This document shows, one piece after another, positions 18,487 to 38,018 of a stretch of 64,000 nt of DNA; position 1 is the first letter of the stretch, and each line of letters begins with the position of its first letter. Under the pieces are notes generated by a model, which saw only the letters and a program-made list of their open reading frames with translations, had not been told where the DNA came from and did not search any database. The stretch lies in NCBI GenBank assembly GCA_963705105.1, contig CAVPIW010000006.1, forward strand, positions 1,024,001-1,088,000, written 5' to 3'. The position numbers were made by a program, and so were the translations under genes. Source of the DNA: an uncultured Nitrospiraceae bacterium (GTDB lineage: Bacteria; Nitrospirota; Thermodesulfovibrionia; Thermodesulfovibrionales; Dissulfurispiraceae).

Positions 18487-18771
18487 AAACCGGACATTTT
18501 CACTTTGCCGAAAACCGGACATTTCTATCCTGCAGTTGCATGAAAAGGCGGGGCGAAGCGCTCTGAAAACAGTGTCAGTGTGAGTGTCAGTGTCAGTGAA
18601 AGGAATCGTTTTTATATCGACGCTGCCGTCCTGGTATTCGTGACCTTGTTCCGACTGTCGACTGCCGACAATGACTTTAATGACTCAATGACTTAATGAC
18701 TCTTGCGGTGGCATCTTCGCCCCGCCTTTCCGGAAAGCGTATGCAACGATACGGTCTATTTTGCCTTGACA
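18487..18771. mobile_element. Orphan IS end (TGTCAA terminus with repeated AAATGTCCGGTT), interrupted by a MITE
   Basis: aaaccggacattttcactttgccgaaaaccggacattTCTA[MITE]TCTAttttgccttgaca. Confidence 0.65.
18528..18754 (+). mobile_element. MITE copy, TSD TCTA
   Basis: tcctgcagttgca...tgcaacgatacgg flanked by tcta/tcta. Confidence 0.85.
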
Positions 18772-33886: not shown

Positions 33887-34096
33887 TTCCGAAACAGGCT
33901 TCACCTCACAGTTGCACCGCCGCCCTGCCCAGATTCGTTTGGTTCTGCAATATACAGCCACTGACGCGTCCTCCGGCATCTCTGGAAAACCTCTTTGATA
34001 AATGATAGTATACATCAGCAGTCGGTGTTGCAGTTCGTGCACATTGACAAAGACGGGCTATGGCCTGAAACAAACCCTTTTCCCGAGGAGGCAGCC

Positions 34097-36277
34097 GTGT
34101 CTAATAGGACGTTTTCCTTTCTCTTCATCTCAGCGCTTGTCCTGGTTTCGCTCTTGCCTTGCCTGTCAAGCGCCGACCCGCTTGACACCTGGCACTGGAG
34201 GAACCCTCTGCCCCAGGGGAACGGCCTCAGGGGGGCAACCTTCGGGAACGGAACCTTTGTTGCCGTGGGAAGATCCGGCACAATCGTCACCTCTCCTGAT
34301 GGCGTGACATGGACATCGAGGAACTCAGGGACTACGAATGGTCTCTTTGACGTGACCTTCGGGAACGGGATCTTTGTTGCCGTGGGGTATCCTGGCACAA
34401 TCATCACCTCTCCCGACGGCGTGACATGGACATCGAGGAGTTCAGGGACTGGCCATTCTCTCACCGGGGTAACCTTTGGCAACGGGACCTTTGTTGCCGT
34501 GGGGTATGCCACCACAATTGTCACTTCTCCCGATGGGGTGACATGGACCTCGAGGCACCTAGAGAGTGACTATGATCTCCTCGGGGTAGCCTTTGGCAAC
34601 GGGACCTTTGTTGCCGTGGGGGGGAGTTGGGGTTCAGATACCTTTTTTTCCTATGCGAAATTGGGCTTAATTGAGACTTCTCCTGATGGGGTGACATGGA
34701 CCTCGGGGAACTCAGGGACTGCCCGTCCTTTCGCCGGGGTAGCCTTTGGCAACGGGATCTTTGTTACCGTGGGTATTTATTCGGGCACAATCCTCACCTC
34801 TCCTGACGGGGTGACATGGACCCCGGGGAGCTCAGGGATTGCCAATCCTCCCGATCTCTCAGGGGTAGCCTTTGGCAACGGAACCTTTGTTGCCGTGGGG
34901 AATGGAAGCACAATTGTCACTTCTCCTGACGGCGTGACATGGACATCGAGGAGTTCAGGGACTGGCGAATTTCCCAGAGGGGTAACCTTTGGCAACGGGA
35001 TCTTTGTTGCCGTGGGGTATCCTGGCACAATCATCACCTCTCCCGACGGCGTGACATGGACCTCGAGGGTCTCATCAGTAACTGCCCGTCATAGTCTCAC
35101 AGGGGTAACCTTTGGCAACGGGATCTTTGTTGCCGTGGTGTATCCTGGCACAATTGTCACCTCTCCCGACGGCGTGACATGGACCTCGAGGGTCTCATCA
35201 GTAACTGCCCTTCATAGTCTCGCAGGGGTAACCTTTGGCAACGGGATCTTTGTTGCCGTGGGGTGGCCTGGCACAATCATCACCTCTCCCGACGGCGTGA
35301 CATGGACCTCGAGGAGTTCAGGGACTGGCCATTCTCTCACCGGGGTAACCTTTGGCAACGGGACCTTTGTCGCCGTGGGAGGATCCGGCACAATCGTCAC
35401 CTCTCCCGACGGCGTGACATGGACATCGAGGACCTCAGGGCCTGGCCAATTATTTGGTCACAATGGGGTAACCTTTGGCAGCGGGAGCTTTGTCGCCGTG
35501 GGGAATGCCGGCACAATCCTCACCTCTCCCGACGGCGTGACATGGACATCGAGGACCTCAGGGCCTGGCCAATTTCTTGGTCTCAATGGGGTAACCTTTG
35601 GCAGCGGGAGCTTTGTCGCCGTGGGGAATGCCGGCACAATCCTCACCTCTCCCGACGGCGTGACATGGACATCGAGGAGTTCAGGGACTGGCCAATTTCT
35701 CAATGGGGTAACCTTTGGCAACGGGACCTTTGTTGCCGTGGGCAGTTTTAGCGGAATCCTCACTTCTCCCGACGGCGTGACATGGACCTCGAGGAGTTCA
35801 GCAGGGACTGGCGAATTTCTCAATGGGGTAACCTTTGGGAACGGGACCTTTGTCGCCGTGGGGAGTGGTGGCGCGATTCTTCAATCAGATCCTGCACCCG
35901 CAACCCCGGCGGTGAGGGTGAACAACGCTTCTCAGCAGATCACCCTGAGATCGAATGAGGCGCTCTCGGTGACTGTGAGCTTCGACGCAGGAGGGATGTC
36001 CGGAATACATGCTGACTGGTGGGTTGTGGCGTATGCGCCTTATGGCTGGTCCTACTATGTGCATCCCGGCATGTGGTTCTATGCCCCTTCGCCGGAGTCA
36101 CTTCGCCCTGCCGCTCAGGGACCTCTCTTCAGCTTTTCCCCGATCGAGGTGCTCAATATGACAGGGCTCCACGCAGGGACATATTTCGTCTATTTCGGTG
36201 TCGACACAAACGCCAACGGTGTCATTGATTTCGACCAACTGATCCTTGACTCCACGACGATCGACATCGTGCCGTAG
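34097..36277 (+). CDS. Secreted BNR/WD40-like beta-propeller repeat protein (14 blades plus C-terminal beta domain)
   Basis: GTG at 34097 after SD GAGGAG; signal peptide; 13 TSPDGVTW and 14 FG[N/S]G.FV.V units. Confidence 0.85.
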   Translation: MSNRTFSFLFISALVLVSLLPCLSSADPLDTWHWRNPLPQGNGLRGATFGNGTFVAVGRSGTIVTSPDGVTWTSRNSGTTNGLFDVTFGNGIFVAVGYPGTIITSPDGVTWTSRSSGTGHSLTGVTFGNGTFVAVGYATTIVTSPDGVTWTSRHLESDYDLLGVAFGNGTFVAVGGSWGSDTFFSYAKLGLIETSPDGVTWTSGNSGTARPFAGVAFGNGIFVTVGIYSGTILTSPDGVTWTPGSSGIANPPDLSGVAFGNGTFVAVGNGSTIVTSPDGVTWTSRSSGTGEFPRGVTFGNGIFVAVGYPGTIITSPDGVTWTSRVSSVTARHSLTGVTFGNGIFVAVVYPGTIVTSPDGVTWTSRVSSVTALHSLAGVTFGNGIFVAVGWPGTIITSPDGVTWTSRSSGTGHSLTGVTFGNGTFVAVGGSGTIVTSPDGVTWTSRTSGPGQLFGHNGVTFGSGSFVAVGNAGTILTSPDGVTWTSRTSGPGQFLGLNGVTFGSGSFVAVGNAGTILTSPDGVTWTSRSSGTGQFLNGVTFGNGTFVAVGSFSGILTSPDGVTWTSRSSAGTGEFLNGVTFGNGTFVAVGSGGAILQSDPAPATPAVRVNNASQQITLRSNEALSVTVSFDAGGMSGIHADWWVVAYAPYGWSYYVHPGMWFYAPSPESLRPAAQGPLFSFSPIEVLNMTGLHAGTYFVYFGVDTNANGVIDFDQLILDSTTIDIVP

Positions 36278-36310
36278 TCATCGGACGTTCTTTTTTACAG
36301 AGAGCAAACC

Positions 36311-36345
36311 GGGGCATTGGGCCGGAACGTGCCGGACAATGCCCC
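36311..36345. terminator. Hairpin downstream of the propeller gene
   Basis: ggggcattg...caatgcccc. Confidence 0.5.
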
Positions 36346-36346
36346 A

Positions 36347-36571
36347 GCAGGGGTAAATTTCGAGCAGGTAGTTATCCTGATGGAACGAGGAGATGTCCTC
36401 GAAACAATTGAACACCCAAATCAAAAAAGATATCCTGGTCAGAAAATCGCAACATTCTGGATTGATGATTATGCTTATCTCGTTCCGTATGTTCAGGAAA
36501 GCGACGAAATATTCTTAACGACCATTATCCCGAGCCGAAAAGCAACGAACAAGTATATGAGGTCACAATAA
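36347..36571 (+). pseudogene. BrnT-like toxin, apparently 5'-truncated
   Basis: GVNFEQVV...EHPNQKRYPGQ...YAYLVPYV...TIIPSRKAT; the typical N-terminal segment is replaced by hairpin sequence. Confidence 0.7.
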
Positions 36572-36855
36572 TGAAAAAAACAGTATTGGATGAAGAAGAA
36601 AAAGATATTTTAGAGTCTTACGAACGTGGTGAATGGAAACCTGTCAATAATCCGAAGGCAGAAATTAAGAAACTGCAGGAATACGCAAGAAATACGCTAC
36701 AAAAAGACAAGAGGATAAATATCAGGATGTCATCAAAAGACTTGAACCAAGTTCAAGTCATCGCCGCACAGGAAGGAATCCCGTATCAAACCCTGATATC
36801 CAGCATCATTCACAAGTACGTTTCGGGCTATTTAACGGAGAAAAAGAGGGCTTAA
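36571..36855 (+). CDS. Antitoxin (CopG/BrnA-like RHH)
   Basis: LDEEEKDILESYERGEW...KDKRINIRMS...GIPYQTLISSIIHKY. Confidence 0.85.
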   Translation: MKKTVLDEEEKDILESYERGEWKPVNNPKAEIKKLQEYARNTLQKDKRINIRMSSKDLNQVQVIAAQEGIPYQTLISSIIHKYVSGYLTEKKRA

Positions 36856-36925
36856 TCGGGTAAGAAGCGGTGATTGGCCGTCCCTCCCCGCACCACCCAT
36901 CATGCGGGTCCGCAGTAGGCGGTTC
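36855..36925 (-). ncRNA. Group IIC intron 3' remnant (domains V-VI)
   Basis: Minus strand GAACCGCCTACTGCGGACCCGCATGATGGGTGGTGCGGGGAGGG...CTTACCCGAT; CGC triad, bulged A, AY end. Confidence 0.8.
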
Positions 36926-37247
36926 GCGGAAATCATCGGGAGCCCGGCAACGGAATTGAGACAAATCGAATACGTCACCCATGATCCTCACGGCCCGGAC
37001 GAGTCAAGAACGGCCGACCTCCCTATTTTTCTTCTCGATGTTTCCTATCTGTTCTGCAATGGGGTCATCCCCCTATCTCCGTCATCAATAACGTGCTGAA
37101 AACCGGCGGGGCGAAGATGCAAGGGTTGGAAAAAACCGCGGCTTGATATCGCCGTGCACAATTTCCGAAGGAAATCGGAAAGCGCGAGGGCAGATATATC
37201 TCCTGATAGGCGATAATAGGTGTCACCAATGTGACAGGAGGCGGTTC

Positions 37248-38018
37248 ATGAACATCATCTTTCATGATTCTTACTACCGGGTGTATGACAGGGACCCCGC
37301 GGCGGCGCCGGGGCGCATGGAACCGATAATGCGGGAGCTGAAGAAGCACCCGCACTACACGTTCATCACCCCCGAAGCGGCGACGGAGGAGGACCTCAAG
37401 AGGGCCCACTCGGTCCTCCATATTCAGACGATCCGCCGCTCCCCTCTCATCTACGAGATTGCGGTCCTCGCTGCGGGCGGCGCTATCGAGGCGGCTGAAC
37501 GGGCCTGGGCGGGAGAGCCTTCCTTCGGCTGCATCAGGCCCCCCGGTCATCACGCCTCTTCGGACAGTTGCTGGGGGTTCTGCTTCTTCAACAACATGGC
37601 CGTGTCCCTCCTGAAGCTCAAGGCTGAGGGGAAAATCTCGTCGGCTTTCATACTCGATTTCGATCTCCACTTCGGCGACGGGAATGTGAACATCCTCGAC
37701 GGTGTCAGGAACTTCACAATCCTGAACCCCTCTGCCCGGAACGAGAGGGATTACCTGAGGGAGGTCTCGTCGGTCCTGGACAGTGCCGGCGACTACGACA
37801 TCATCGCGGCCTCGGCGGGCTTCGACGAATATGTCAAGGATTGGGGCGGCAAGCTCTCGACGCAGGCGTACCGGGACATCGGGGCGTTGATGAAGGAGTT
37901 CTCGGAGAAACACTGCCAGGGGAGACGGTATGCGCTCCTCGAAGGAGGGTATCACTACGCGGACCTGGGGCTGAACATCCACGCCTTCTGTGAAGGCTTC
38001 CGCTGCGTCGGAATATAA
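37248..38018 (+). CDS. Histone deacetylase family protein
   Basis: RPPGHHA, GFCFFNN, DFDLHFGDG, SAGFD, LEGGY; ATG after GGAGG. Confidence 0.92.
   Translation: MNIIFHDSYYRVYDRDPAAAPGRMEPIMRELKKHPHYTFITPEAATEEDLKRAHSVLHIQTIRRSPLIYEIAVLAAGGAIEAAERAWAGEPSFGCIRPPGHHASSDSCWGFCFFNNMAVSLLKLKAEGKISSAFILDFDLHFGDGNVNILDGVRNFTILNPSARNERDYLREVSSVLDSAGDYDIIAASAGFDEYVKDWGGKLSTQAYRDIGALMKEFSEKHCQGRRYALLEGGYHYADLGLNIHAFCEGFRCVGI

Follow-up and report, generated by a model that had tools for sequence, protein, structure and literature searches.

In the 64-kb window analysed here (the whole stretch of 64,000 nucleotides), a toxin-antitoxin gene pair is followed, on the opposite strand, by a short sequence that looks like the end of a group II intron. 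The question was whether this sequence is a genuine intron remnant, and whether the pair beside it was once an integron cassette whose attC site served as the intron target. Our analysis confirmed the sequence as the genuine, decayed end of a IIC-attC intron, lying in a toxin-antitoxin cassette that is now a fossil, a kind of locus that is already known and largely ordinary.

Identification and extent of the intron remnant

The remnant comprises the 3'-terminal 86 nt of a group IIC-attC intron and occupies positions 36855 to 36940 on the minus strand. Domain V, with the catalytic CGC triad, its bulge and a GACC loop, was recognized within the minus strand of 36925-36855, and domain VI, with its bulged A and a 3' end of the AY type, terminates in ACCCGAT at 36855, TAAGC following on the minus strand at 36854-36850. 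The stop codon of the intron protein also lies inside the remnant, which is 76-89% identical to four sibling introns of the same genome and 72% identical to positions 1902-2003 of a full, related intron in another genome (G025). The sequence-only reading, which had described domains V and VI ending in ACCCGAT before TAAGC, was thus borne out; it had let the remnant reach 36925, and the homology to the siblings extends slightly further, to 36940. At that point the homology ends, and domains I-IV and the intron 5' end, present in the siblings, were not found at the locus.

An Rfam scan for domains V and VI had been proposed as the check, with the lack of a covariance-model hit as the outcome that would count against an intron. 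The remnant gave no Rfam match at the gathering score in the 64-kb window, nothing relevant appeared at E<=5 over 36200-37400, and a whole-genome search with RF00029 returned a single match, the sibling at C6:558183-558251 (41.5 bits, cut-off 40), the remnant being unscored. The Rfam check therefore missed the remnant at every cut-off run, although the intron is real by our own covariance model, trained on 16 sibling ends with the window copy left out. This model gave one match in the 64 kb, at 36855-36944 (81 bits, E 8e-19), so that a covariance-model hit does exist. It marks a few pairs of domains V and VI as broken in comparison with the siblings, and it finds nine intron 3' ends in the genome, four of them belonging to the training set. 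By plain folding the remnant has a z-score of -1.5, 15 of 200 shuffles being equally good.

The toxin-antitoxin pair and its surroundings

The antitoxin gene (36571 to 36855, plus strand) is intact and encodes a 94-aa CopG/BrnA-like protein (PF12441, 28.7 bits, cut-off 28). It ends in GCT TAA, the final A of the stop codon being, on the top strand, the terminal base of the intron; the predicted overlap of a top-strand GCTTA (36850 to 36854, the left part of an attC R'' box) with the antitoxin stop was hence found as described. In front of the antitoxin lies a 5'-truncated BrnT-like toxin gene (36349 to 36571, plus strand), 81% identical to residues 19-91 of a homolog that scores 28.7 bits against PF04365, below the cut-off of 34.5; the BrnT and BrnA family scores fall below the curated cut-offs. 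Both genes have a G+C content of 37-39%, as compared with 57%. A working type II system has a full-length toxin and a promoter; here the first 18 toxin residues, the start and the promoter are gone, and the cassette core site is missing as well. Because the toxin gene is truncated, the pair can no longer work as a toxin-antitoxin system.

A G+C-rich hairpin at 36311-36345 (plus strand) directly abuts the broken toxin gene; it was recognized by folding, has no U-tract and is not listed as a terminator. Further upstream, at 33995-36277, the window encodes a protein of 760 aa, probably a beta-propeller, that has a likely signal peptide and numerous repeats of about 40 residues. We also observed an intergenic repeat scattered over the genome; its 16-base core is present there 67 times, in many cases embedded in a conserved stretch of about 100 bases. 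Within the window it was noted at 18711, 28626 and 37105-37120, a diverged copy being situated just past the intron remnant.

Beyond the remnant (36941 to 36967, plus strand), about 20 nt of possibly decayed intron, with a non-significant local match, are followed by ACAAATC at 36961. This heptamer, which was noticed by eye, is the commonest continuation of the attC site in the homologs (12 of 99) and is expected about 0.002 times in 30 nt; it may be the old 5' exon. When the re-joined site was folded with the sequence from 36961 onward, no attC hairpin was formed, so the TTGT located 20 nt past the remnant comes without an attC fold. The region 36941-37235 had no match in the fetched loci, and its only match at the protein level was itself.

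Evidence from homologous cassettes

A complete attC site (L boxes and R') and the 5' core site, which are present in homologs, are absent at this locus, and neither further attC sites nor an integrase neighbouring the cassette were found in the window. Since the attC body, the core site and the intron 5' end have all gone from this locus, the cassette status rests on the homologs. We fetched 160 loci with antitoxin homologs, namely the best 80 of 154 genome matches and the best 80 of 407 metagenome matches, and 133 loci were left after removal of duplicates. The junction reads GCTTAAC in 90 of these 133, and at the window locus GCTTA is kept of this R'' box (RYYYAAC) at the gene end. Several of 14 homologs inspected begin with the matching core GTTAAGC, and all 14 carry a TTGACA promoter and a toxin start, both of which the window copy lacks; a narrow pattern found the upstream core in only 50 of the scored loci. 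GCTTAAC, which had been proposed as the original site, is accordingly well represented among the homologs.

Whether antitoxin homologs are followed by attC sites had been put forward as a further check. The junction ends in AC in 104 of the 133 loci, and 38 of these 104 carry a full attC according to an L-box heuristic, which 66 fail. The same test was passed by 125 of 5200 shuffles and by 12 of 231 genes of the own genome ending in TAAC; it is home-made and noisy genome-wide, giving 59 candidates, many of them false. With a stricter test based on free folding, 33 of the 160 loci pass. Moreover, an intron end occurs at the same base in 8 of the 133 loci (six clear, two only a few bases long). 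The homologs are thus often followed by attC sites, the pair in the window is broken at both ends, and the interpretation of the locus as a fossil cassette is supported by these comparisons. The genome has another pair of this toxin-antitoxin family at C8:94560-95053; it is apparently complete, shows 49% and 56% identity, and has an attC-like site after it.

Target-site rule of the intron family

At the window locus the remnant lies within the bottom strand of attC's R'' box, antisense to the gene, and has T at IBS3. The family to which it belongs behaves similarly. Nine intron 5' ends were found in the genome, most of them after attC-like bodies ending in GT, which is where the siblings sit. 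Of the 22 5' exons seen over all fetched loci, 19 have GT as their last bases and 12 have TTGT; T is the opening base in 50 of 54 3' exons. In domain I there is an ACAA, complementary to TTGT; a 5' exon TTGT within an attC hairpin is seen in the siblings and is lost at the window locus. These figures agree with the postulated bottom-strand insertion at GT/T opposite to the cassette gene, with the TTGT/T consensus in R'' given for IIC-attC introns (PMC7923331), and with their insertion into the bottom strand of R'' as described in PMC3001079 and PMC7923331. Related loci commonly hold 3' remnants that are short and of many different lengths.

The proposed search for a full IIC intron elsewhere was successful in G025, where the intron is 2003 nt long and encodes a 446-aa reverse transcriptase/maturase scoring above the TIGR04416 cut-off. 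The best plasmid matches of this protein are 53-57% identical, those ranking second to fifteenth being ltrA proteins (53-55%). In the one ltrA plasmid record that was opened, the gene is part of a class 1 integron, where it is placed antisense, with aadA1 on one side and qacEdelta1 on the other.

An ORF-less lineage among the siblings

Three copies in the own genome (C6:555155, C6:558183 and C12:147924) lack the protein gene. In two of them, and in the third with an extra deletion, the start of the gene is joined, at one shared position, to the codons at its end, a short domain IV linking codon ~27 to codon ~431. A search for this join in 390 genomes of the class, with two candidates scored per genome, found it in six others, so that it is seen in seven genomes altogether: G189 (twice), G265, G271 and G097, as well as G300 and G388, where contig ends cut the copies. 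One G189 copy (L224:1-785) is about 800 nt long and has an attC as its 5' exon; the second is at L260, and the same genome also encodes an intact related intron protein.

In a tree of 247 columns, seven ORF-less copies stand apart from seven ORF-derived ones (SH-aLRT 96, UFBoot 89). The join closes a hairpin, and by eye the same hairpin pairs both gene ends in full introns; repeated deletion is therefore possible. In the short domain IV stem 94.8% of cells are paired and 2 of 12 pairs are changed on both sides, as much as is reached by 42-48 of 500 shuffles. The window piece was considered as a member of this lineage; it ends before the join, and its best local score, equalled by 21 of 500 shuffles, is not significant. 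ORF-less IIC introns are already known (PMC11754743), and ORF-less bacterial introns are treated in PMC4424553; our literature search, which covered the HYERs via PMC11754743 only, yielded no publication on an ORF-less lineage that targets attC.

Possible exchange of attC bodies between near-identical cassettes

Among 104 loci, 42 of 84 pairs of antitoxin genes at least 95% identical have attC starts less than 55% alike (the pairs are not independent), whereas none of 47 promoters differs to that degree. More than one type of attC body occurs in 8 of 14 gene clusters; where both members pass the attC test, 3 of 17 pairs differ in the body. Loci L102 and L073, for instance, differ in 18 of 557 gene bases, yet their attC bodies are unlike from the junction on; base counts for L152/L158 and L081/L092 were left out because of a locus edge and an indel. 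Near-identical cassettes with bodies differing from GCTTAAC onward were observed at L102, L073, L152, L210, L076 and L199.

Such an exchange at the junction would fit intron copies recombining with one another and then being lost precisely, with integrase top-strand recombination or misassembly as alternatives. The intron model of cassette building, as summarised in PMC7923331, predicts exchange at exactly the junction base. Recombination of the top strand by the integrase also cuts in R'', at a rate 1000- to 10000-fold lower (PMC5027507). De novo cassette formation is termed largely unknown in PMC5371416, and we found no paper on near-identical cassettes with switched attC bodies in our literature search. 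With introns at the junction base in 8 of 133 loci and half of the closest pairs differing in the attC body, the intron model becomes testable against integrase top-strand recombination, and the family constitutes a data set on de novo cassette formation. A broader proposal would be that in these sediment and groundwater bacteria abundant IIC-attC introns, among them a lineage without the protein that is mobilized in trans, re-join cassette genes to new attC bodies through intron-copy recombination and precise loss; the scar in the window would then be a failed product, and the switching of toxin-antitoxin mosaics at GCTTAAC a footprint of the intron model. We regard this as speculative and rather improbable.

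Integrases and reverse transcriptases in the genome

No integrase or reverse transcriptase was matched within the 64-kb window, as the sequence-only reading had stated, yet two full integron integrase genes (intI) are found elsewhere in the genome, on contigs C12 and C5, attC sites lying beside the C12 copy; attC arrays are present on other contigs. A conserved element of about 110 bases occurs just upstream of both integrase genes (C12:170000-170130 and C5:226220-226340) and beside the G025 intron (L053:1840-1945), and is possibly part of attI. Group II reverse transcriptase was found in the genome as fragments only, at C5:534416-534726 (a more distant group II enzyme), C6:406323-406481, C5:454270 and C9:210432; as the assembly consists of 19 contigs, a full copy could be missing. 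The 512-aa reverse transcriptase at L007:1141-2679 (C14) was rejected as a group II enzyme, its best match being the unrelated Drt4 (246 bits, below the cut-off of 450); it is likely a defence enzyme. Two cassette clusters lacking an integrase, C12:146478-149312 and C6:553000-559500, contain many toxin-antitoxin genes and attC sites full of intron pieces. At C7:187435 the 3' end of a different IIC intron is followed by TA.

Origin and fate of the locus

The best explanation, to which we assign a probability of about 90%, is a fossil BrnT/CopG-type toxin-antitoxin cassette that received a IIC-attC intron at R'' and suffered two losses. A self-promoted cassette of this type would have arrived at an intergenic spot away from any integrase. 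Before or after that arrival, the intron would have reverse-spliced into the attC bottom strand at R'' (..GT|TAAGC), opposite to the gene, at a site that can be read at the locus and by a mechanism taken from the literature. The intron 5' part and the attC body, both gone today, may have been lost later or in an incomplete copying step; as no attC fold lies behind the ACAAATC at 36961, incomplete copying and later deletion fit alike. Group II introns are often fragmented through incomplete reverse transcription or rearrangement, as reported in PMC2504315. A separate deletion, whose place in the order of events and whose cause are likewise conjectural, would have removed the core site, promoter and toxin start. 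What remains is a fossil: neither mobility nor recombination by an integrase is left to it, and splicing and retrohoming are excluded by the anatomy of the fragment.

Other explanations were weighed against this one. The missing Rfam match and the modest folding score would be expected if the likeness to domains V and VI were due to chance, but the identity to four genomic siblings and the score of an independent model refute this, the identical junction occurs in other genomes, and the probability left to chance is negligible. The intron could also have hit a terminator-like or fortuitous TTA behind a chromosomal gene that was never a cassette, or its insertion could have been a stage in the making of a new cassette out of a gene of this sort. 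IIC-attC introns retain some terminator targeting (PMC7923331), and the locus has no attC body or core site; however, intron-free homologs already end in GCTTAAC, often together with a complete attC and a GTTAAGC core upstream, and on the 5' side of the intron the junction lacks a hairpin. The homolog junctions have largely refuted this origin, which we consider highly unlikely.

Slightly less remote, though still very unlikely, is that the remnant has been retained for a function, such as terminating transcription of the antitoxin or serving as a small RNA, the locus then being a domesticated orphan antitoxin. The antitoxin frame is indeed intact, and contigs from public samples, shallow and of related strains, offer some parallels: one (X3) has 36878-36955 with 8 differences, joined to the upstream region of the next gene, and contigs from two samples (X1 and X4) are without most of the toxin and retain the start of the antitoxin. 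None of the contigs spans the stretch, and in a search for an empty site via the next gene, 2 of 25 relatives had this gene, in other neighbourhoods. Retention for a function is opposed by the broken pairs in domains V and VI, by the absence of a promoter-like site before the antitoxin on the plus strand and of a terminator call at the remnant, and by remnant lengths that vary freely between loci. Taken as a fossil, the lone remnant is one more decayed IIC-attC intron, and such remnants may mark cassettes invisible to attC scanners.

Comparison with known systems

As a toxin-antitoxin pair, the locus resembles integron BrnT/BrnA-like type II cassettes in the promoter of its homologs, in the overlapping stop and start and in the weak BrnT and CopG/BrnA matches; toxin-antitoxin cassettes carrying their own promoters are described in PMC11023631. 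It differs in its truncated toxin and in BrnT/BrnA scores under the curated cut-offs. The intron shares with the group IIC-attC introns S.ma.I2, G.s.I1 and N.e.I1, as presented in PMC3001079, the bottom-strand insertion into R'', the antisense orientation and the T as first 3' exon base, to which the TTGT 5' exons of the siblings and a related protein situated in a class 1 integron can be added. Unlike these introns, the window copy has only 86 nt, with no protein, 5' end or attC body, and the local family begins with GTACG instead of GUGYG. Siblings from the own genome and from six others resemble the ORF-less class IIC introns and HYERs (PMC11754743, from whose description the HYERs were compared; PMC4424553) in lacking the protein gene, whereas the window piece is too short to be placed. 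Another parallel is UHB.F1, which in the account of PMC7923331 is also a 5'-truncated IIC-attC intron, antisense and associated with toxin-antitoxin cassettes; most of its protein gene is retained and its setting is an array, while the window holds a single, doubly broken cassette.
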